DNA of 12,133 bases, taken from positions 1 through 12,133 of the forward strand of contig JBHEMM010000029.1 of NCBI GenBank assembly GCA_046262595.1, in the 5' to 3' direction. The position numbers and the translations under genes are program-made. This DNA is from Vulcanimicrobiaceae bacterium. Its GTDB lineage: Bacteria; Vulcanimicrobiota; Vulcanimicrobiia; Vulcanimicrobiales; Vulcanimicrobiaceae. How positions within the stretch are numbered: position 1 is the stretch's first letter; the number at the start of each line of letters is the position of its first letter. This document shows, one piece after another, positions 3 through 12,133 of the stretch. The notes below the pieces were generated by a model. The model ran no database searches and was not told the DNA's origin. It was given only the letters and a program-made list of their open reading frames with translations.

Positions 3-796
3 ATGGACCCGCGTGTTCGTAAAGCATTAGAAGAGTGGGTCAAACAGGGAAACACCGTGGCGCTGTTTGGTGCAGCGCCGTCTTTTGTGCCCCCGCTCTT
101 CGGTGCGCGCGCGCGCTTCGGCGGCTCGCGCGATGCCGTCACGGACTGCGGCGTGCGCGCCGGGCCGTATGCGGTGACGGGTCCGTTCCCGCAAACGTTT
201 TCCGCGGGGTGCTCGAGAACCCGCGCGACGCTGCTGCGCTCGGGCGCGCGTGCTGCCGGCATTGCGTACGCGTATGGAAAAGGCACCGTCGTCCTCGTCA
301 CGTCCGCACAGCCGTTCGACAACGAGCATTTGAGCAAAGCGGGCAACGCCCGTTTCGCGTACGATCTTTTTGCTCCGCTCGGACCGGTCGCTTTTGACGA
401 GCGCCTCTACGGCTATGCGAACGATCGCAGCTTGTGGCAGGTGATCCCGCCGCCGGCGCGTTTGGCGATCGTCATTGCCGGTATCGCGCTGCTGCTCGCG
501 CTCGCCGGTGCGAACCTGCCGTTCGCGCCGCCGCTGACGTTGGAAGAAAAAGCCGTGCGCGACTCTTCAGAGTATCTGCATTCGCTCGCGTCGATGCTCC
601 GGCGCGGGCGCGCGCACCGCGACGCGGTCGCACGGTTCTGCACACCGATCAAAAAAGCGCTTGCGCCGCACGCGGCGCAGCCTGACGCCCGCGCAATGCT
701 CGAAGAAGCGCGCTCGCTGGAGATGCAACTGTCACTGCACGAGGAAGATGTCCTTGCAGCGGCGCGCATCTTCGCTCGTGTTCGAAAGGATTATCC

Positions 797-803
<7 letters not shown>
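3..803 (+). CDS. DUF4350-like membrane-anchored protein of the MoxR cluster (probably 5'-truncated by the window edge)
   Basis: Motifs such as 'WVKQGNTVALF', 'YGKGTVVLVTSAQPFDNEHLSKAGNARFA' and 'VAFDE', then one hydrophobic helix (RLAIVIAGIALLLALAG) and 'FAPP...EYLHSLASMLRR', resemble DUF4350 proteins found upstream of MoxR. The stop overlaps the moxR start (ATGCTAA, 797-803). The true start is likely upstream of base 1. Confidence 0.75.
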
Positions 804-1748
<945 letters not shown>

Positions 1749-1762
<14 letters not shown>

Positions 1763-3089
1763 CGTACCGTGGCTCGCGCTGTGGCTGGGGCCGCGCGCGT
1801 ATTGGGCGCTCAGCATCCTCGCGATGTTGTTCGCGGCGGCTGCGCCGCTGCACGCGGTGCTTTTTGCAGCTTATGCGGGCGCCGCCGCGTTCGCAGTCCT
1901 TATCGTGGCCGACGCCGTGCTCATACGGCGCGCCGCTGCCTTCGAGATGACGCGGCGGCCGCCCGAACCGTTTGCAATGGGCCGCCGCGCATCGCTTGGA
2001 TACATATTGCGCAATCACGCCGCATATGCGCTGCGCACGGGCTCGATCGAAGCACCGCTGCATCTCCTGCGGTACGAATGCGACGAACTCACGGTACGCG
2101 TGCCGCCGGCAAGCGAGGTGCGCGTGGAGCGCGCGGTGCTGCCGGTGGCGCGGGGCTCGGGCGACCTGCAAACGCTTTTCGCCTGGTACGAAACGCCGAT
2201 CGGATTGTTGCGGCGACGCATGCGCGTTGCGGCGGGGGCTTCCGTGCGCGTGTATCCCGATCTGAGCGCTGTCGAGCGGTACGGATCGCTTCAGGCGCGT
2301 AACCGCTTAATCGAATCGGGATTGCGGCGCATGCGTCTGCGGGGCGCCGGAACCGAGCCTGAAAGCGTGCGCGAATGGGAAGCCGGCGATGCGTTCCGGG
2401 CAATCGATTGGAAAGCCACCGCGCGCACCGGCAAAGTGATGGTCGTCCAATACGAAGTCGAGCGCAGCCAAAACGTCGTGATCCTGCTCGACGCCGGACG
2501 GCTGATGATGCCGCGCATCGGCCTGCAGCGCAAGTTCGATTACGCCGTGACGGCGGCACTTTCGGTTGCCTCCATCGCGGCGCTCGCCAACGACAAAGTT
2601 GGCGTGGTCGCTTTCGCGGGCGAGATCCTGCGCGCTTCCGCGCCGCGCCAACATGGACGTTCGCTCGAGCGTCTTGCGCAGGAGATGCACGACATCGAGC
2701 CGCGTTTTGAAGAAGCGGATTACGACAAAGCGTTTGCGTATCTGCGCGCGCACGTGCATAAGCGCAGCTTAATCGTTTTCTTTACCGATATGATCGATCC
2801 GGCAGCGCAAAGTTCCGTGCTCGCGCAGCTCGCGACGCTGAGCCGGCGGCATCTGGTGATCTGCGCGTTCATGAACGATGCCGCCGTAGAAACGGCGCTC
2901 GAACGGGAGCCTGCAGACGCGCGCGAGGCTTATACGCAAAGTGTTGCGCTGGACCTGCAGGCAGAACGGCGGCTCGCTTCGGCGACGCTGGTGCGCATGG
3001 GTGTACGCGCGATCGACGTGCCGGCGCGCCTTTTGACGACAACGCTTATCGATCGCTATCTTCAGATAAAGCAGCGGGTTCAACTCTAG
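1749..3089 (+). CDS. DUF58-domain (VWA-like) protein, MoxR partner
   Basis: N-terminal hydrophobic helices, 'VRVYPD', DUF58 core 'GTEPESVREWEAGDAFRAIDWKATARTGKVMVVQYEVERSQNVVILLDAGRLM', then 'DKVGVVAF' and 'RSLIVFFTD'. Start placed at GTG 1749, overlapping the moxR 3' end; TTG 1737 is an alternative. Confidence 0.9.
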
Positions 3090-4038
3090 GCACGCCAAAA
3101 TAAACGAGCAGCGCGAACGCCGTTGCGATGCCCATGCCGGCGCGCACCGCTTCCGAAAAGCGCAATGGTGAGAAGAAGCCCTCGATCGCGCCGGCAACCG
3201 GCAGCATTGCCGCTACCCCGCAGATGAGGACGCCCGCACGGCGCGCGTTGCGCACGAGCGCTTCACTCCGGCGCAAACGTCCGGGCAGCAGCACGCCCGC
3301 CGCAAGCAGCAGCCCCGCTCCGCCGGCGATTTGAATCGCGGTGAGCTCGATGAAGCCGTGCGGCGCAATCGTCACCCAAAAATCCGTTCCGAAGCCCGCG
3401 CGTCCGTAGAGTGCGCCCAAGGCGCCGAGCATCAACCCGTTCAGCGCAATCTCGTACACCGTAAAAACGCCTAGCGTGACGATTCCTGCGGCGAACGCAA
3501 GAACGGCTACGCGGATGTTGTTCGTAATGATCAGCGACGACATTTCGGCCGACCGCTGCGGCGAAAACGCGAAGTTCGAGTTGTGCAGGCTGCGCGTGAT
3601 GTGCGCGGGGATCATCGAGTCCGGCACGAGCGCACTTGCATCGGCCGGCCGGTTCATGACGACGATGTAGGCAACGCATGCGCAAAACACGGTCAAAACA
3701 ACGCAAATGCCGATGGAGGTCCACGACGCGCGAACCTCCGCCGGGAAGGTGTAGACGAAGAAGCGCGCGGCGCGGCGCCAGCCGCCCTCGAGATTCGCTC
3801 CGTAGACGAAGGCGTGCGCGCGCGCGGTGAGCCGGTTGAGATATAGCAGAACGCCGGCATCAAACCGGCGCCCTTGAGCGTATGCGAGATCGGACGTCAG
3901 CAGGCGGTAGAGGCGGCCGAATTCGAAAAGTTCGCCGGCGCTCAAACTCGAGAGGCCGCGTTTCCCGGCGCGCGTCAACAGCGTTTCAAGCCGTTCCCAA
4001 TTTTGCGTGCGGCGGCGTACGAACGAACGCTGATCCAT
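3046..4038 (-). CDS. SpoIIM-like / DUF95 integral membrane protein
   Basis: From ATG 4038: MDQRSFVRRRTQNWERLE, 'LYRLLTSDLAYAQ', 'YLNRLTARAH', 'IITNNIRVA', 'NGLMLG', 'IAPHGFIELTAI', 'AGAIEGFFSP', typical of the SpoIIM-like family in MoxR clusters. The upstream part of the 439-aa ORF is antisense to the RDD gene and is not considered real. Confidence 0.9.
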   Translation of the reverse strand: MDQRSFVRRRTQNWERLETLLTRAGKRGLSSLSAGELFEFGRLYRLLTSDLAYAQGRRFDAGVLLYLNRLTARAHAFVYGANLEGGWRRAARFFVYTFPAEVRASWTSIGICVVLTVFCACVAYIVVMNRPADASALVPDSMIPAHITRSLHNSNFAFSPQRSAEMSSLIITNNIRVAVLAFAAGIVTLGVFTVYEIALNGLMLGALGALYGRAGFGTDFWVTIAPHGFIELTAIQIAGGAGLLLAAGVLLPGRLRRSEALVRNARRAGVLICGVAAMLPVAGAIEGFFSPLRFSEAVRAGMGIATAFALLVYFGVPRVEPAALSEDSDR

Positions 4039-4080
4039 CTGCACAGGGCGCTTCGCGCACGTGCAGCGAACATCCCGCGG

Positions 4081-4818
4081 ATGGATCGCTCGCTCAGCGT
4101 TACAACGCCTGAGAGTATCGCCTTTTCGTACGAGCTCGCCGGCCTGGGCAGCCGCTTTCTCGCGGTGATGATCGATCTCCTGATCCAGATCGGCATTGTG
4201 CTCGTGATCGTGGTGGGCATCGTGCTCGCCCGCACGCAGCCGGGCACCTACCCGCGTGTCGCGGCCGAAACGCCTCTGTGGGCGAAGTCTGCGGCAATCG
4301 CGCTGATCGTCGTCGTCCTGTTCGCAATCTTCTTCGGGTATTTCATCCTGTTCGAAGCACTGCACGGCGGCCGCACGCCGGGAAAGCGGCTGGTCGGCAT
4401 CCGCGTCGTTCGCGACGGCGGTTACGCGATCGATTTTGGAAGCGCCGTGGTGCGCAATCTGGTGCGCGCCGGTGAGTTCGGGTTGGGCTTTTACGCGATC
4501 AGCGCGGCGTGCACGCTGATATCGAAGCAGAACAAACGCCTGGGCGATTTAGCCGCGGGCACCGTCGTGGTGCGGGACGCGCGTACCGTTTCGCTCGCGA
4601 TGCTGCACGCCCAGTCTGGCGCGGGAGGGCCGCCCTCGCCGCTTACCCCTGAAGAGCAGGTGATCGTCGACCGGTTTGTCGCGCGCCGGGCAACGTTGGC
4701 GCCCAATATCCGCGGCTTCCTTGCCGCCCGTATCGTCGACCGCATCCGTCCGCGCCTTTCGGAAGAACTGCGGCGGCTGGACGATGAAGCGCTTTTGGAG
4801 CGGCTTAGCGCTTCGTGA
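4081..4818 (+). CDS. RDD family membrane protein
   Basis: From ATG 4081: 'TPESIAFSYELAGLGSRFLAVMIDLLI', two TM helices, 'YFILFE..GGRTPGKRLVGIRVVRDGG', 'RNLVR' and 'KRLGDLAAGTVVV' are RDD signatures. Confidence 0.92.
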   Translation: MDRSLSVTTPESIAFSYELAGLGSRFLAVMIDLLIQIGIVLVIVVGIVLARTQPGTYPRVAAETPLWAKSAAIALIVVVLFAIFFGYFILFEALHGGRTPGKRLVGIRVVRDGGYAIDFGSAVVRNLVRAGEFGLGFYAISAACTLISKQNKRLGDLAAGTVVVRDARTVSLAMLHAQSGAGGPPSPLTPEEQVIVDRFVARRATLAPNIRGFLAARIVDRIRPRLSEELRRLDDEALLERLSAS

Positions 4819-5788
4819 TCTTCGCGGCGAGATCGCGCGCGAAGCAGAGCGCTTCGTTCTTCGTCGAGTCGTAAATTGCTTTGGCGTCGGCGGCGCTCAT
4901 CTGCCGTCCGTGTTCGTAAAAGAACGTCACGCCTTCGCCGACGACAATTGTCCCCGCGTATGCGATCGCGCCTTTGATGGCAATGCCGGCGACCGGAATG
5001 AAGCCCGAGAGTTCGCGCGCGAGGGAACGCCAGCCGAAGCCGCCGCCGATGACGGGCAGCAGCTGCCAGAGCCGCTGAACGTCCGGATCTTTGCCGTACG
5101 CGGCTTCGATCTGCAGCATGAGCATCATCTGAATGCCGGTGATCGCGACCATATCACCTGCCGACGCGAAGACGCCGGCGAGCAGGCCGATGACCGGAAT
5201 GTGATCGACGACAGCGCTCGCAAGCGAGACTTTGAGCGCGTTGCTGGCCGCATCGCGAGTGAGCTTCGCGCCGACGGCTTCGCGCAGCACGGGCAGCCGG
5301 CGCCCGACCGCAATTTCCACGCCCTTCGAACAGTCGATTAAATGCGCGAACACCCGGCCGCGCAACGCTTCGCGCGAAATGGCCGGGACGAAGTATTCGC
5401 CGTACGCGCCGCGCACCGGCGCAGCGGCCGGGCCGGATGCCGGCGCATCTTCATCAACGGTAACGCCTAGAATCGGCAGGTTCAGCGCGCGCAGCGGCGC
5501 CATGCCGGCCGCCGAAACGTCGCTTCCCCGGCCCAAAAAGATCACGGCCCGCGCTTCCGCCGGCAGCGAGATGTGCGGGACGCCCGGAACGATCGTCTCC
5601 AAGCACGCCGCCGCGTCCGGCGGGACAGTTTCTTCGCCATGCCCGGAGAGCAGCAGCGCCCGCAGCGAGGCCACCAGAGCCGGATCGCCGCACAGGTAGT
5701 ACCGGAACGGTTTACGCGTATGCGCGTGCACCGCGCGGACATCGATGCCCTTGCGTACCAGCCGCAGCAACTCCCCCGTCGCCGCCAC
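4805..5788 (-). CDS. DUF697/YcjF-like protein with an uncharacterised N-terminal alpha/beta domain
   Basis: The C-terminal half 'IPVIG...AGDMVAITGIQMMLMLQIEAAYG...GGGFGWRSLARELSGFIPVAGIAIKGAIAYAGTIVVG...FFYE' matches the DUF697 pattern from recall. The GTG start is 5 bp after the peptidase stop. Confidence 0.72.
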   Translation of the reverse strand: MAATGELLRLVRKGIDVRAVHAHTRKPFRYYLCGDPALVASLRALLLSGHGEETVPPDAAACLETIVPGVPHISLPAEARAVIFLGRGSDVSAAGMAPLRALNLPILGVTVDEDAPASGPAAAPVRGAYGEYFVPAISREALRGRVFAHLIDCSKGVEIAVGRRLPVLREAVGAKLTRDAASNALKVSLASAVVDHIPVIGLLAGVFASAGDMVAITGIQMMLMLQIEAAYGKDPDVQRLWQLLPVIGGGFGWRSLARELSGFIPVAGIAIKGAIAYAGTIVVGEGVTFFYEHGRQMSAADAKAIYDSTKNEALCFARDLAAKITKR

Positions 5789-5793
5789 GGCTA

Positions 5794-7848
5794 TTACGTG
5801 CCCCCGCTTGCGGCTTGACGGCGCGTCTGGCCGCCGGGATGCGCTTCGTTTTGCGGATCGTCGGTGTAATCCAGGTAGATGAGTCCCAAAAATATCTCCA
5901 GCGCTTCGGCGTGCATGCCTCTGGCGTTGGCGATGTCGACGATGCTGCGGTGCTGCTCGTGCGACTCGCGGATGATTGCCTGCGGCGTCGTGCGCGTATC
6001 CGCCGCAACGATCGAGGCTGCCGTCAATTCGCCGGGCGTGACGTCGTCGTGCAGCATGTCGATGTAGCTCAAGTCATCCACGTTCCACCGTACGTTGATC
6101 GCCTTCTGAAGGGTCGCGTAACGCGGCGCCGATGTTCCCAGGCCCAGCATCGTGATCTCGGCGGAGAGTTGACGCGAGCGCGCCATGTTGTAGAGCTGCG
6201 AGGCTTGCGATGCCGATACCGCCGCCTGGCCCAGCGATGTCTGCGCCTTTTGCATATAGGGAAGCAGCGATTCGTAATCCATCTGCGAGTAGTCGTTGAA
6301 GTAGTTGAGCGATATCTGCTGCAGCCGCTTCACGAACGCGTCCAAGTCGCCCAAGCCTTGATCGAGCTGCATGGCGGATGCGCGGCCGGCATCCACCGCG
6401 CGCACCATATCGCCGTCCGCCGCCGAAAGCTCGCCGAACATGTGCGGATACGATGGAAAGACGGCCACGGAGTCGGAGGGAATCGGAACGGCCTTCATGG
6501 CGCCTTGCATGTCGGCGAGCACACGCGCGTTTTCCGCGAGAAGGCCGGTCGGCTTGTTTGTTTTTGTATCGACCGAGCCGACTTGCTCGACGGCTTGCGT
6601 GATGTCGGTGATCGCGCTGTTGACGGAACGCGACATGCCCGAAAGGCTGCGCTGCACGGCTTCGACGCGCGAGCCCTTTTTGATCTCCACGCGGCTGAAG
6701 TCCGGAATTTCGTAGCCGATCGTGTCCAAACGCTGCTTAAGCGAGTTCAGCTGGCTGTGCCCTTGATCGTGGCGTGCGCCGATCTGTGCTACGGCTTGCG
6801 TCTGCACGTCCAGCGCCTGCTGCATCTTTTGGTTGAGCGACGCGAGGTGGGGCCGCGTCAAGTCGACCTTGTGCACTTCCATCGCGCGCAGCGCCATCAC
6901 TTGCGCTTGGGCCGCGGCTTTGACTTGCGGCGAGCGGCTTTGCGCCAGTTCTCCCAGCGTCGCGCGGCTTTTGTTCGTCAAGCCCAACGCCAACTGCGCT
7001 TCGCTCTGTCCGAGCATCGCTTGCTGGTTGGCCGGATTCGTCTGGAGGATTTTTCCTAGTTCCAGGCTTGCCGAGCTGTACCGTGCTTGCTGCAGATCGT
7101 GCAGCGCCCAAACTAAGCGCTGGTCGGCGGTCGTCTTGGTCGGATCCAGTTCGGGATAGCCGAGCAGATGCGAAACGCGCGCGCCGGATCCGGGATGGTC
7201 CTGGAAATACTTGGTGACCAGATCGCTATGCTCGCCCTCGAGCGCACCCAAATGCTGCTGCATAGTAAGCATCGCTTCGGGGTCGTAACCCGCGCGCGAC
7301 ATCAGCAGCAAACCGTATTCGTCCGCCTGCAACTCGTCCTGGCGCGACATCTTAGCCATGGCACCGGCTTGAATGAGGTTGCCGAAATTGTAGATGAACG
7401 GCGAGAAGATCGAAGCGATTCCCAGGATCAGATTGAGGATTTGCGATTTGTTCTGCATCGTGACCGCATGGCGGCGCTCGATGTGGCCGGTTTCGTGACC
7501 GATGACGCCTGCCAATTCGTCGTCGGACTGCACGAAGTCGAGCAGTCCCTCGTTGACGTAGACATAGCCGCCCAATGTGGAAAAGGCGTTGATGTCGTTG
7601 TCTTTGACGATCTTGATATTGTAGGGAACGTCTTTGCGCGCCGTCTCCGCCCACAGTTTGTTCGAAACGCCTTGAACCCACGCGTTGAGCAGGGGGTCGG
7701 ATTCGATGACGCTGCCTTCGACGATCTGCTGATCGTAGTAGCGGCCCATTGAAATTTCGGTTTGCGTGGACGTCGCAAGCGCAGGTGACGGGCACATGGC
7801 ACCCATCAGCGAGATGATGACGGCAATGGGAATGACGCGGCGTAACAT
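5794..7848 (-). CDS. Exported M48-family zinc metalloprotease with TPR-like region and long helical C-terminal extension
   Basis: Signal peptide MLRRVIPIAVIISLMGAMCPSPALA. Peptidase motifs 'INAFSTLGGYVYVNEGLL', 'DELAGVIGHETGH' (HExxH at 7483-7497), 'SRQDELQADEYG', 'AGYDPEAM' and 'DHP...R'. TPR-like 'YSSASLELGKILQTNPANQQAMLGQSEAQLALG'. Ends in tandem stops TAA TAG. Confidence 0.92.
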   Translation of the reverse strand: MLRRVIPIAVIISLMGAMCPSPALATSTQTEISMGRYYDQQIVEGSVIESDPLLNAWVQGVSNKLWAETARKDVPYNIKIVKDNDINAFSTLGGYVYVNEGLLDFVQSDDELAGVIGHETGHIERRHAVTMQNKSQILNLILGIASIFSPFIYNFGNLIQAGAMAKMSRQDELQADEYGLLLMSRAGYDPEAMLTMQQHLGALEGEHSDLVTKYFQDHPGSGARVSHLLGYPELDPTKTTADQRLVWALHDLQQARYSSASLELGKILQTNPANQQAMLGQSEAQLALGLTNKSRATLGELAQSRSPQVKAAAQAQVMALRAMEVHKVDLTRPHLASLNQKMQQALDVQTQAVAQIGARHDQGHSQLNSLKQRLDTIGYEIPDFSRVEIKKGSRVEAVQRSLSGMSRSVNSAITDITQAVEQVGSVDTKTNKPTGLLAENARVLADMQGAMKAVPIPSDSVAVFPSYPHMFGELSAADGDMVRAVDAGRASAMQLDQGLGDLDAFVKRLQQISLNYFNDYSQMDYESLLPYMQKAQTSLGQAAVSASQASQLYNMARSRQLSAEITMLGLGTSAPRYATLQKAINVRWNVDDLSYIDMLHDDVTPGELTAASIVAADTRTTPQAIIRESHEQHRSIVDIANARGMHAEALEIFLGLIYLDYTDDPQNEAHPGGQTRRQAASGGT

Positions 7849-8100: not shown

Positions 8101-8940
8101 ATGGCGGTACTGCGCGGTAAAGGCCTCGGTCTCGAGGTCGCCTTGGGAGGACGTGATTTCGAGGCGGCCCTGGCCGAACTGCAAAGCAAGCTCGGCGAGC
8201 GTCCCGGCTTCTACCGCGGCAGTTCTGCCACTGCGGCGCTCGGCGCGTCCGCGTGCTCGCACGAGCAGATGGAACGCCTTCGGCTTCTTCTTGACGCGCA
8301 CGGAATCGCGCTCGAAGGCCTGTGCGGCGGTCCTTCGCTTGAATCGCTTGCGCAGGAGCTGGGCGTGCGTTTTGCCGCTCTGGACGACGGCGGTGAAGAG
8401 CTCGCCCGCCGCCGCGCGCTGCGTCCGACGCGCGAGGTTCAACTCTCCGACGCGGCGCGCTCGCTCGTGGCCGATTTTGCGGGAGCCCGCGCCGACATTG
8501 CGAACCGCCGGCAGCGCGGAGAAACCAGCGTGCGCCGCGCCGCTGCTGCAGCGGCGGGTCCCGTTTCGCCGGAGACGCCGCAGAGCGATGCGCCCGCGGC
8601 TCCCGCAACGCTGTATCACGTCGGCACCTTGCGCGGCGGGCAAGCGCTGCACAACCTCGGGAACATCGTGATCGTCGGCGACGTGAACCCGGGAGCGGAA
8701 CTCGTGGCAAGCGGCGACATCGTCGTGTTCGGCGCGCTGCGCGGCGTCGCGCACGCCGGCGCGCAAGGCGATGCGGGCGCGCGCGTGTACGCAATCGATC
8801 TCGCTCCCACGCAGCTGCGCATCGCAACCTATATTGCTGCGGATGCGGGAAATCGTTCGCATGCGGCGGTACATCCGGAAGTTGCATGCGTTCAAAACGA
8901 ACGCATTGCGATCGTTTCAAAGGAGCGTCCATCGCCGTGA
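8101..8940 (+). CDS. minC: Septum site-determining protein MinC
   Basis: N-domain 'LRGKGLGLEV...LQSKLGERPGFYRG'. C-terminal beta-helix 'TLRGGQALHNLGNIVIVGDVNPGAELVASGDIVVFGALRGVAHAGAQGD..ARVYAIDLAPTQLRIA'. Lies directly upstream of minD. Start placed at ATG 8101 rather than 7852. Confidence 0.94.
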   Translation: MAVLRGKGLGLEVALGGRDFEAALAELQSKLGERPGFYRGSSATAALGASACSHEQMERLRLLLDAHGIALEGLCGGPSLESLAQELGVRFAALDDGGEELARRRALRPTREVQLSDAARSLVADFAGARADIANRRQRGETSVRRAAAAAAGPVSPETPQSDAPAAPATLYHVGTLRGGQALHNLGNIVIVGDVNPGAELVASGDIVVFGALRGVAHAGAQGDAGARVYAIDLAPTQLRIATYIAADAGNRSHAAVHPEVACVQNERIAIVSKERPSP

Positions 8941-9728
8941 GCGCGCGCAAGATCGTTTTTACCTCGGGCAAGGGCGGCGTCGGCAAAACGACGACGACCG
9001 TGAACACCGGCGCGGCGCTCGCGCAGCGCGGGCACCGCGTCATCTTGATCGATGCCGATATCGGCTTGCGTAATCTCGACCTGGTTCTGGGGCTTGAAAA
9101 ACGCATCGTTTTTGATTTAGTGGAAGTGATCGAAGGGCGCTGCCAGGTGCGTCAAGCGCTGATCAAAGACAAGCGCTTCGATTCGCTCTCGATCCTTCCG
9201 GCGGCCCAGACGCGCGACAAAGAAGCCGTCAACGAAGAACAGATGGCTGGTTTGGTCGAGGAGTTGTCCGGCATGGCCGACTACGTCCTCATCGATTGCC
9301 CGGCCGGCATCGAAGGCGGCTTTCGCAACGCCGTCGCGGGCGCAGCCGAAGCGGTGATCGTGACCACGCCCGAAGTGAGCGCGATACGTGATGCGGATCG
9401 CGTGATTGGCAAGCTGGCGGAAAAGGCGATGCCCGTGCGGCTCATCGTGAACCGCATCCGGCCCGAGATGGTGCGCAGCGGCGACATGCTCTCCGTTGAA
9501 GACGTTTGCGAAATACTTTCGGCCGAACTGCTGGGCATCGTGCCGGACGATGAAGAGATCATCGACACGACCAACCGCGGCGAGCCCGTCGTGCTTGGCG
9601 AAGGTTCGCGCCTGCGCGCCATCTACGAGAAGATCGCGCGGCGGCTCGAGGGCGAGCTCGTGCCCTTTACCAATCTCGACTCCACCGGATTTTTGGGCCG
9701 TCTTTTCGGCGCCTTGAAAGCAGGCTAA
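8937..9728 (+). CDS. minD: Septum site-determining ATPase MinD (copy 1)
   Basis: Deviant Walker A SGKGGVGKTT, DADIGLRNLD, AAQTRDK, DCPAGIE, TTPEVSAIRDADR, GDMLSVED, NRGEP and the C-terminal amphipathic membrane-targeting sequence GFLGRLFG. The GTG start overlaps the minC stop (GTGA), with AAGGAG upstream. Confidence 0.96.
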   Translation: MSARKIVFTSGKGGVGKTTTTVNTGAALAQRGHRVILIDADIGLRNLDLVLGLEKRIVFDLVEVIEGRCQVRQALIKDKRFDSLSILPAAQTRDKEAVNEEQMAGLVEELSGMADYVLIDCPAGIEGGFRNAVAGAAEAVIVTTPEVSAIRDADRVIGKLAEKAMPVRLIVNRIRPEMVRSGDMLSVEDVCEILSAELLGIVPDDEEIIDTTNRGEPVVLGEGSRLRAIYEKIARRLEGELVPFTNLDSTGFLGRLFGALKAG

Positions 9729-9729
9729 C

Positions 9730-10569
9730 GTGCACCACGCCGCAGTCGATCCGCTGCTGCAAAGCGTGCCCAAACAGTTGGGCCGCGCGATCGTCATCAC
9801 ATCCGGTAAGGGCGGCGTCGGGAAAACAACAACGACCGCGAACCTGGGCACCGCATTGGCGAAGCGCGGCGCAACCGTAGCGCTCGTCGATGCCGACGTC
9901 GGTTTGCGCAATCTCGACATCGTCATGGGTTTGGAATCTCGCGTGAAGTATCACGTGCTCGACGTCTTGGAAGACGTGGCGACGCTCGACGACGCGCTCG
10001 TGCGCGACAAAAATTCGCCGACGCTGCAGCTGCTGGCGGCCGCGCAGACGCGTGAAAAAGAAGACGTCGACACGGAAAAAATGCGCGCGCTGATCGAGCG
10101 GCTGCGCGAACGTTTCGACTATGTGCTGATCGACTGCCCGGCCGGCATCGAGATGGGCTTCAAGAACGCCGTCGTCGGCGCACAGGAAGCGATTGTCGTG
10201 TGCACGCCGGAGGTTTCCGCGGTGCGCGATGTGGATCGCGTCGTCGGGCTGCTCGGCAACCGTTTCACCCCGCAGCTCGTCATCAATCGCGTCCGCCCGG
10301 GCCTGGTGAAAAAAGGCAAGATGCTTTCGGTCGAAGACGTCAATTCGATTTTGCATCTGCCGCTGCTCGGCGTCATCGCCGACGAACCGGACGTGATCGT
10401 TTCGACCAACAAGGGCGAACCGCTCGCACTGCGCAGCGATTCACCGACGGCTTCCGCCTATCACGCGATCGCGGCTCGCATCGCGGGCGAGGACGTCGCC
10501 GCTCCCACCGTAGAATACAAAGCGAGCTTCATGGATAAACTCGGTTCGTTCTTCGGAGGCCGCCGCTAG
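9730..10569 (+). CDS. minD: Septum site-determining ATPase MinD (copy 2)
   Basis: SGKGGVGKTT, DADVGLRNLD, AAQTREK, DCPAGIE, TPEVSAVRDVDR, MLSVED, NKGEP and C-terminal amphipathic SFMDKLGSFFG. The GTG start is 1 bp after the minD1 stop; an alternative TTG start at 9778 gives MGRAIVITSGKGG. Confidence 0.94.
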   Translation: MHHAAVDPLLQSVPKQLGRAIVITSGKGGVGKTTTTANLGTALAKRGATVALVDADVGLRNLDIVMGLESRVKYHVLDVLEDVATLDDALVRDKNSPTLQLLAAAQTREKEDVDTEKMRALIERLRERFDYVLIDCPAGIEMGFKNAVVGAQEAIVVCTPEVSAVRDVDRVVGLLGNRFTPQLVINRVRPGLVKKGKMLSVEDVNSILHLPLLGVIADEPDVIVSTNKGEPLALRSDSPTASAYHAIAARIAGEDVAAPTVEYKASFMDKLGSFFGGRR

Positions 10570-10571
10570 CA

Positions 10572-11072
10572 ATGATCGAGTTCTTCAACAAGCTCTTCGG
10601 CCGCCAACCCTCGGGCGCAACGGCGAAAGAGCGCTTACGCCTGGTCCTCATGTCCGATCATCTTTCACTGGCTCCCGACATGATCGAGGCGATGAAACGC
10701 GATCTCGTGGACGTCATCTCGCGCTACGTCGAAGTCGATCGCGAAAAGATCGACGTTCACTTCGAGCACCAAGACAAAGCCCTGGCCATGCTCGCAAATA
10801 TCCCCATCACGGGCGTAAACCGCAACGGCTCATCCTCCACCGGCTCGAACGGCAACGACTCCAACGGCGAGCGCGAACCGTCAGCAGGCAATGCGCTCGC
10901 GACGCCGCAGGAAGCGGCTCGTGTCCCGGAAGCCATGGATGGGGGTACGAGCGGACGAGCGCGGCCGGCCACCGCCGATGCCGCCGCGCCCAAAGCCAAA
11001 AACGGCGCCCGCCGCAAACGCAAGAAAAACGGCGCCGCGCAATCTGCGGGAAGACCGGCACCGGCAACGTAG
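10572..11072 (+). CDS. minE: Cell division topological specificity factor MinE with long low-complexity C-terminal tail
   Basis: N-terminal amphipathic MIEFFNKLFG, contact helix 'SGATAKERLRLVL', 'MKRDLVDVISRYVEVD' and 'LANIPI'. SD GGAGG at 10555-10559. Residues ~85-166 are an extra tail. Confidence 0.93.
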   Translation: MIEFFNKLFGRQPSGATAKERLRLVLMSDHLSLAPDMIEAMKRDLVDVISRYVEVDREKIDVHFEHQDKALAMLANIPITGVNRNGSSSTGSNGNDSNGEREPSAGNALATPQEAARVPEAMDGGTSGRARPATADAAAPKAKNGARRKRKKNGAAQSAGRPAPAT

Positions 11073-11132: not shown

Positions 11133-12133
11133 ATGGCCTCCATCGCGCTTTCGTACCAGACGCGCCGGTATCTGCGCAGCGTCAATTGGTTCCTGATAGC
11201 CGCAGCGGCTTTGTTGACGCTGTTCGGCATCGTGGTGATTCAATCGGCCAACTTGCACTCGGGCGACGCCGGATCCGAGTATAAGAAACAAGCGTTTTAT
11301 GCCATTGCCGGCGTCGCGGTCATGTATGCGTTCTCACGCACCGACTATCGCAATTTCGCGCGCTGGGCGCCATGGCTGTACGGCATCAATCTGCTTCTGC
11401 TGCTCGTCGTATTCCGGGTCGGGCATAACGCGCTGGGCGCCCAGCGATGGATCTCGCTGGGGCCGCTGGGAACGTTTCAACCCTCGGAACCCGCCAAACT
11501 CATTTTGGCAGTCTTCGTCGCGTGGGGCCTGTGCAAGTGGCCGTTCCGGCGGCTTGAAGATTTGTTGCGTCCGCTGGCAGCCGTCGGCATTCCCGCGCTG
11601 CTGATCGTCAAACAGCCGGACCTCGGAACGACGCTGGTGCTGCTTTCGATCCTCTCGACGCAGCTGTTCTTCGGGCTGGAACGTCTGCGCTATTTCACCG
11701 TGTATGCGTTGGGCGTGATAGGAACGGCGGCATTCACGGTCGGCACGAACTTTGTCCTCAAGCCGTTTCAAAAAGCGCGCCTGCTCGTCTTCGTCAATCC
11801 GAAAGCCGATCCTCAAGGTGCCGGTTACAATTTGAACCAGTCGAAGATCGCCGTCGGCAGCGGCGAATGGTTCGGGCGGGGCCTGCATCACGGCACGCAG
11901 ACGCAGCTCAACTTCGTGCCCGAACACTCGCGCGATTTTATTTTCACCGTGGTCGCGGAAGAGACGGGCTTTTTGGGTGCGCTCGCCGTGATCGGTGTCT
12001 ACATCGTTTTGCTGTACGGCGGCATCATCGCGATGATGGCGGCGCGCGACAAGTTCGGTTTTTTGCTTGCGGCCGGAATCGTCGGCATGTTCGCGTTTCA
12101 CGTCATCGTGAACGTCGGGATGACGATCGGCAT
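11133..12133 (+). CDS. rodA: Rod shape-determining protein RodA (FtsW/RodA/SpoVE SEDS family), 3'-truncated by the window edge
   Basis: Absent from the ORF track because there is no stop in the window. Manual translation from ATG 11133 gives MASIALSYQTRRYLRSVNWFLI..., 'GAQRWISLG', 'FQPSEPAK', 'KQPDLGT', 'GAGYNLNQSKIAVGSG', 'GTQTQLNFVPEHSRDFIF..AEETGF' and 'NVGMTIG'. Position after minE favours rodA over ftsW. Confidence 0.92.
   Translation, partial: MASIALSYQTRRYLRSVNWFLIAAAALLTLFGIVVIQSANLHSGDAGSEYKKQAFYAIAGVAVMYAFSRTDYRNFARWAPWLYGINLLLLLVVFRVGHNALGAQRWISLGPLGTFQPSEPAKLILAVFVAWGLCKWPFRRLEDLLRPLAAVGIPALLIVKQPDLGTTLVLLSILSTQLFFGLERLRYFTVYALGVIGTAAFTVGTNFVLKPFQKARLLVFVNPKADPQGAGYNLNQSKIAVGSGEWFGRGLHHGTQTQLNFVPEHSRDFIFTVVAEETGFLGALAVIGVYIVLLYGGIIAMMAARDKFGFLLAAGIVGMFAFHVIVNVGMTIG

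Follow-up and report, generated by a model that had tools for sequence, protein, structure and literature searches.

Biological pattern formation has its standard model in the Min system, whose characterised bacterial versions use one homodimeric MinD. The closest described system is the Escherichia coli-type MinCDE system (PDB 3Q9L, 3R9I/J), with which we compare a minC-minD1-minD2-minE operon on a stretch of 12,133 nucleotides (positions 1 to 12,133 of contig JBHEMM010000029.1, assembly GCA_046262595.1; G000:C29) from a soil-type Vulcanimicrobiaceae bacterium whose genome, G000, is 89.7% complete. The whole stretch is referred to as the window. The operon resembles the E. coli-type system in the order minC-minD-minE, in its catalytic residues and the helix-7 residue D154, and in possessing a C-terminal membrane helix, a MinE contact helix and the MinC R-x-G-Q motif. 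In contrast to the E. coli-type system, a single MinC and a single MinE serve two MinDs, and the two MinD proteins are set apart by reciprocal charge changes at a predicted dimer contact, by K159 in MinD1 (D1), and by H59 and an N-terminal extension in MinD2 (D2). The two-MinD operon is real, class-wide and maintained by selection. The sequences further suggest that D1 and D2 act mainly or preferentially with each other, in a D1:D2 heterodimer whose two partner faces differ, a reading to which we assign a probability of roughly 0.6.

The Bacillus subtilis-type MinCD-MinJ-DivIVA system is unlike the present one, as MinE is present here and no DivIVA match (PF05103) was found in the incomplete genome G000 (MinJ was not searched for). 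Paralogous subunits take the place of a homodimer in Cfd1-Nbp35, Ffh-FtsY and mycobacterial BagA-BagB, which are P-loop relatives, none of them a Min-oscillator MinD. Haloferax volcanii (MinD1-4) also has several MinD-family paralogs per cell, but these function without MinC or MinE and have no division role, and MinD2 and MinD4 place motility structures, according to excerpts of PMC13228585. Literature searches, whose coverage left out most subscription papers, turned up no account of a tandem minD operon or of the phylum's Min genes, in keeping with the suggestion of the first-pass annotation of the window that this may be an undescribed Min variant. A search for the lineage names across all but one large file of the PMC10241942 supplements likewise gave no match. 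A cultured member of the class grows as rods to filaments of 1-92 µm, and the available part of its description makes no mention of minD (PMC9758169).

Two MinD proteins in a single operon

The first-pass annotation had placed four tightly packed genes at 8101-11072, and the coordinates and NCBIfam scores of all four bear this out. On the forward strand, minC (8101..8940) scores 98.2 bits against the NCBIfam model TIGR01222 (cut-off 95.25); the ATG at 8101 was chosen as its start, as the alignments of relatives begin at its residue 1, and in-frame starts exist upstream. It overlaps minD1 by 4 bp. The minD1 (8937..9728, +; GTG start, 263 aa, P0001) and minD2 (9730..10569, +; GTG start, 279 aa, P0002) genes are separated by 1 bp and score 366.8 and 351.8 bits against TIGR01968 (cut-off 212.9), while minE (10572..11072, +; 166 aa), after a gap of 2 bp, scores 74.8 bits against TIGR01215 (cut-off 49.3). 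With minC and minE encoded beside minD, the locus belongs to the MinCDE type, and by analogy the system would work like MinCDE. The MinD-binding motif of MinC is RGGQ here and RSGQ in E. coli. The MinE domain comprises residues 3-79 of MinE and is followed by a low-complexity tail of 85 residues with a basic cluster (window 10821-11072); such long tails occur across the phylum, the single-MinD sister classes included.

Both proteins are MinDs by the family test, and each contains the deviant Walker A lysine K11, switch I residues D40 and N45, E146 and D152 (E. coli MinD numbering). In an alignment of 100 D1, 102 D2, 25 sister-class and 25 Bacillota MinDs (the last being those of 35 loci that passed a motif filter), which left out five frameshifted copies in four genomes and the D1 of G068 (open frame), residues K11, K16, N45, E126, E146, D152 and N222 are invariant in all D1 and D2 sequences, and D40 is present in 100/100 D1 and 101/102 D2. 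The motifs GKGG, GLRN, QTR and RD[A/V]DR, noted in both copies at first pass, were found in both translations. Similarly, the earlier hand count of about 130 identical residues in 237 was reproduced on recounting the core (130/237), with BLASTP giving 135/259 (52%) and the DNA 546 of 739 aligned bases; across 99 genomes the D1-D2 identity is 49-60%, or about 55%. D1 is the nearer of the two to single-copy MinD (mean identity to the sister classes 55.6%), and it matches MinD chains at 1e-65 to 1e-77 and FleN chains at 1e-25. Further MinD structure matches are 6RIQ (Pseudomonas aeruginosa-type) and 4V02/4V03 (Aquifex-type), the organisms being given in excerpts of PMC5548801 and PMC6771821. A homologue search with the D2 profile returned, among the matches listed, proteins 79-91% identical and called MinD where named.

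A C-terminal membrane-targeting amphipathic helix, proposed earlier for both proteins, is predicted as an 11-mer in D1 (9687..9719, +) and in D2 (10525..10557, +), with hydrophobic moments of 0.62 and 0.63, respectively. The median moments are 0.63 for 100 D1, 0.60 for 102 D2 and 0.66 for 25 single-copy proteins, all computed with no control of unrelated tails. D2 additionally has an N-terminal extension (9730..9777, +), overlooked at first pass, of 16 aa here and of 12-176 aa across the class, which is rich in Ala, Pro and Glu and is present in 56/56 paired loci. The extension varies in length and sequence, and its sole common motif is a frequent His at position 2 (26/56). The longest, 176 residues in frame, is in L057 (G031:C42), where it overlaps the D1 stop by 4 bp. 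The distance from the D1 stop to the first D2 start is at most 15 nt in 53/56 loci; a Shine-Dalgarno count of 44/56, made with a loose pattern and no control, is given no weight. In E. coli, ClpXP degrades MinD via its N-terminus, according to excerpts of PMC7857489, and by analogy the D2 extension could alter protein turnover, although this is a guess.

Distribution and descent of the pair

The minC-minD1-minD2-minE arrangement is a trait of the class Vulcanimicrobiia (Eremiobacteria), and named records put the lineage in Vulcanimicrobiota/Eremiobacteria. A survey of minCDDE synteny, proposed at first pass, recovered two adjacent same-strand TIGR01968 matches in 40/40 relatives (24 of the same family, 5 of the same order and 11 of the same class), or 37/37 once the unpublished genomes G022, G023 and G036 are removed. 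In a phylum sample of 150 other genomes, at least two matches were found in all 81 same-class genomes (one of them the unpublished G036), while the 69 genomes of other classes contain one MinD in 41 cases, none in 28 and two in none. All 65 of 65 class loci, from 63 genomes with G000, G022 and G023 among them, show the order C-D1-D2-E. Two whole MinD open reading frames (ORFs) were obtained from 63 of 67 class loci; of the other four, three are truncated at the locus start and one has the two genes with ambiguous bases in them. In the outgroup loci, minC-minD occurs in 25/25 and a minE match in 20/25. The single-MinD operons of the phylum's other classes have the same order and long MinE tails, and their one MinD carries both K/R190 and E215.

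Many of the 28 other-class genomes with no TIGR01968 match at 1e-40 are more than 90% complete. By family, matches were found in 0/5 and 0/6 genomes of f12 and f13 and in 5/19 of f6, which suggests that the Min system was lost in f12, f13 and most of f6. G000 itself contains a third, different MinD on the 728-bp gapped contig C101 (1-728), with a guanine-cytosine content of 0.56 versus 0.62-0.64 in four other contigs; it was rejected as part of the system because this short, gapped, low-GC contig is likely a bin contaminant. The next MinD-like match in G000 scores best with ParA/RepA models, all below cut-off.

Outside the phylum, 301 Bacillota genomes, G172 and E. coli K-12 were counted. TIGR01968 is matched in 252 of the 301 Bacillota and twice in 10 of them. 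Similar to the class, these genomes (and G172) have two matches each; unlike the class pair, which shares one MinC and one MinE, their copies are unlinked. None of the ten pairs is adjacent; the closest two copies lie about 12 kb from each other and on opposite strands, and the second MinD often has its own downstream minC (7/10). These seven (G369, G184, G340, G308, G472, G423 and G398; loci L179, L180, L182, L183, L189, L190 and L191) contain, besides the usual minC-minD-minE, another min cluster that is unlinked to it and has its minC downstream of minD, and in 4/7 a minE match lies between the two genes. In a Melghirimyces genome (G172:C4:137928-138698, L172) the second MinD is over the TIGR01968 cut-off and has no minC or minE match nearby.

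The descent of the pair was probed with two trees. D1 and D2 each form one clade, with supports of 97 and 100 in a quick tree (99 rows) and of 100/98 and 100/100 in a careful tree (41 rows), and the two clades show matching family branching, indicating that the pair is older than the split of the sampled families. In each best tree D1 and D2 fall together on the same side of a branch, with support of 61 (quick) and 85/65 (careful); as this branch is weakly supported, duplication in place is likely but not shown. D2 is the more diverged paralog, with a stem of 0.67 compared with 0.32 for D1. The first-pass description of an old duplication is thus probably right, the paralog pair itself being old and kept throughout the class. 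An assembly repeat is ruled out by 74% DNA identity over aligned bases and by the class-wide occurrence.

The possibility that D2 is an FlhG-like or other non-Min ATPase, or a foreign MinD moved into the operon, draws on its N-terminal extension, which FlhG also has, and on the lack of firm support for D1+D2 monophyly. Several results make it very improbable: the TIGR01968 score of D2; the occurrence of the N-terminal FlhG activator motif DQAxxLR in 0/60 D2 upstream frames; the finding of no FlhF over cut-off (TIGR03499) in the 89.7% complete G000; the shared side of the branch in both best trees, which contain no FlhG rows; and a family order that is the same as that of D1. An FlhG identity, which the first-pass annotation had named as fatal to its proposal, was consequently rejected on the family match, the missing motif and the lack of an FlhF match over cut-off in the incomplete G000.

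Both MinD copies are under purifying selection. The ratio of nonsynonymous to synonymous substitution rates (dN/dS), a measurement suggested earlier for each copy, is 0.04-0.17 for D1 and 0.03-0.14 for D2 in the four closest genome pairs; beyond these, saturation and GC bias at third positions push it too high (medians 0.21 and 0.27; 1,088/1,540 pairs). Five frame breaks in four genomes (G001 D1; G008 D1 and D2; G014 D2; G037 D1) are small indels that look like sequencing errors, although this is not proven, and decay was rejected. In G008 and G014 (L068, L069), a small frameshift falls at one place, D2 residue 183-184, with differing inserted letters, and is likely a sequencing error. The second copy is therefore neither missing (40/40, 81/81) nor decaying, the outcome that would have counted against the original proposal. 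The same results bear on whether the copies are redundant, mixing freely into random homo- and heterodimers for dosage or oscillation tuning, with neutral differences between them. The copies agree in all catalytic residues and in most of those at the interface and at partner sites, as such redundancy would predict; the lack of any clean loss in 81/81 genomes, the purifying selection on both copies and the fixation of paralog-specific residues across three families make it distinctly unlikely.

A proposed divided dimer contact and its possible partner faces

The heterodimer reading is drawn from residues that distinguish the paralogs. Of 176 sites conserved in the 50 outgroup MinDs, 122 are kept in both copies, 44 are mixed and 3 are lost in both; losses confined to one copy number 2 for D1 (190, 238) and 5 for D2 (57, 59, 71, 101, 215). 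Single-copy sister-class MinDs combine K/R190 (25/25) and E215 (24/25) in one protein. In D1, the loop S181-G182-D183 (E. coli 190-192; 9477..9485, +) has lost the ancestral K/R190 and kept the acid at 192, while E206...D210 (E. coli 215 and 219; 9552..9566, +) keeps the acid at 215 and gains one at 219, D/E219 being present in 100/100 D1. Conversely, the D2 loop K195-G196-K197 (E. coli 190-192; 10312..10320, +) keeps the base at 190, and a base at 192 was gained in families f1 and f2 (K/R192 in 92/92), while P220...V224 (E. coli 215 and 219; 10387..10401, +) has lost the ancestral acid at 215. Family f3 arrives at the same charge sign by other residues, namely T192 and K/R215 in D2.

Of these positions, 192, 215 and 219 belong to the dimer interface listed in the AlphaFold-based Halothiobacillus MinD table (187, 191-194, 213, 215, 218, 219, 221 and 222; PMC10241942), which also has both subunits meeting the same MinE residue, one through 191/192 and its partner through 219/222/223. 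A crude charge score, the product of the charges at 190+192 and at 215+219 summed over both sides of the dimer, gives D1:D1/D2:D2/D1:D2 values of +4/0/-4 in 76 genomes, +2/0/-2 in 13, 0/0/-4 in 1 and +4/+2/-3 in 9 genomes of f3. D1:D2 has strictly the lowest score in 99/99 genomes, and the same score is attractive in 21/25 single-copy sister-class MinDs. In a control of equally spaced segment pairs, only 3 of 55,461 pass the bar (heterodimer lowest in no fewer than 98% of genomes, with a mean gap of 3 or more), the 190/192-215/219 pair having the largest gap; it is also the only passing pair among the 4,665 that touch the listed interface residues. This is the pattern expected when paralogs divide one homodimer contact.

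Several points weigh against the heterodimer. The charge test is post hoc, and the genomes are kin that inherited few events and are not independent. The contact table is a prediction for another species, and residue 190 itself is unlisted. E. coli has a charge score of 0, and 25/25 Bacillota MinDs score 0 or repulsive; homodimers elsewhere therefore do not depend on this contact. Furthermore, 90/99 genomes give a neutral D2:D2, not a repulsive one, D1 and D2 have most interface residues in common, which leaves homodimers feasible, and the D1+D2 sisterhood is itself not firmly supported. Because the test is post hoc on related genomes, with residue 190 unlisted and other homodimers scoring 0 or repulsive, the charge-pair pattern is a lead of moderate strength. 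A complex prediction of D1 and D2 with two ATP and MinC's C-terminal domain (score 0.25, mark 0.32, contacts not reported) gave no answer and is not used as evidence.

The first-pass annotation had offered MinD heterodimers or two MinD populations, and the sequence evidence leans to the former. With two mostly separate homodimer pools, the canonical oscillation driven by MinE would fall to D1, while D2 would form a pool, slower or static, that anchors MinC or positions other cargo. The asymmetry of D2 fits this arrangement, since D2 has the longer stem, holds 5/7 of the one-sided site losses, has the extension in 56/56 loci and has lost a MinE-contact acid in each of two families, E201 in f1 and D198 in f2. 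Its surface at 57-72 is also altered, including K73-Y74-H75 (E. coli V57-Y58-D59; 9946..9954, +), in which H59 is new and invariant (H in 102/102 D2, D in 100/100 D1). The lack of a DivIVA match in the 89.7% complete G000 likewise favours separate pools, as does the placing of motility machinery by archaeal MinD paralogs (excerpts of PMC13228585). However, the gain of D219 opposite the D192 of D1 itself is hard to explain for a D1 homodimer, the extension has no shared motif beyond its His, and the operon holds no extra partner gene. Consequently, the two-pool option is less favoured and rather unlikely.

For the preferred heterodimer, the cross-dimer contact between loop 190-192 and helix 215-219 would have been split after duplication, with D1 retaining the acidic side and D2 the basic side. 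At this contact D1:D1 would be repulsive, D2:D2 neutral or repulsive and D1:D2 attractive. ATP-driven D1:D2 heterodimers would then bind the membrane and recruit MinC, leading to a block of FtsZ, and MinE would release the heterodimers as it does in E. coli.

Such a dimer may have two different faces. D1 Lys159 (E. coli I159, helix 7; 9411..9413, +) replaces a MinC/MinE contact, as S148, D154 and I159 contact both partners according to excerpts of PMC6803595 and PMC6771821. Residue 159 is K in 91/91 D1 of f1 and f2, M in 9/9 D1 of f3 and L in 102/102 D2, and K54 is present in 100/100 D1. D198 and E201, listed contacts of MinE K19 (PMC10241942 table), are partly lost in D2: most of f1 lacks E201, with an acid there in at most 1/87, and f2 lacks D198 (5/5 Q). 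In the proposed arrangement, helix 7 of D2 (L159) and the 53-59 strand of D1 would form an ancestral face that favours MinC, and helix 7 of D1 (K159, D192, D198, E201) and the altered 57-72 patch of D2 would form a face for MinE or another partner. According to excerpts of PMC6803595, MinE bound to one side of the E. coli dimer triggers both of its subunits, and MinC/MinD heterodimers that are one-sided are able to complement; a dimer of the one-sided kind can therefore work. As the contact table splits the MinE site, half per subunit, a MinC face and a MinE face are possible.

Given a heterodimer, the assignment of the ancestral face to MinC and of the altered face to MinE or another partner is weakly inferred and somewhat doubtful. 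D154, needed for MinC recruitment and tested as a salt-bridge residue (excerpts of 10.64898/2026.10.05.756812), is kept in 100/100 D1 and 101/102 D2, and the main MinE contacts E53, R151, N222 and G224 are retained in both copies. Family f3 is less specialised, with both acids in most D2 and a hydrophobic residue at 159 in D1. The MinC motif is RGGQ in 42/44 f1 and 5/5 f2 proteins and RSGQ in 10/10 of f3, the change from RSGQ to RGGQ having arisen on the branch of D1 K159; this tracking could mean that MinC contacts D1. All these observations count against the proposed faces.

Surrounding genes and biological meaning

Directly 3' of minE begins a gene that looks rodA/ftsW-like by its motifs; only its start is present (11133..12133, +), as it runs off the window. 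Divergent from minC, at 5794-7848 (-), is a protein of 684 aa whose N-terminal part resembles an M48 metalloprotease (BepA model over residues 26-226, below cut-off) and whose long C-terminal part has no family label, followed at 4805-5788 (-) by a 327-aa ORF with no NCBIfam match. The genes clustered at 3-4818 look like those for a MoxR-type AAA ATPase (797-1762), a protein of the DUF58/VWA kind (1737-3089), a SpoIIM-like membrane protein on the minus strand (about 3046-4040) and an RDD-like protein. A promoter and terminator scan gave one promoter-like site, on the opposite strand, versus 0.5 expected, and nothing usable.

In its strongest form, the heterodimer reading would mean that the whole class runs Min on an obligate MinD1:MinD2 heterodimer with one face for MinC and the other for MinE or some new partner. 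An alternating MinCD filament cannot be extended by a dimer that has a single MinC face, and both the competition of MinC and MinE for one site and the MinCD copolymers, which are central in E. coli, would have been designed out. This extended version is unlikely. A natural two-subunit MinD, if true, would nonetheless test the sufficiency of one-sided MinE action, whether MinE must displace MinC and whether MinCD copolymers matter. It would also offer a clear bacterial case of a homodimer becoming a heterodimer after duplication, with the single-copy sister classes as outgroup, and a tunable two-ATPase oscillator for reconstitution.

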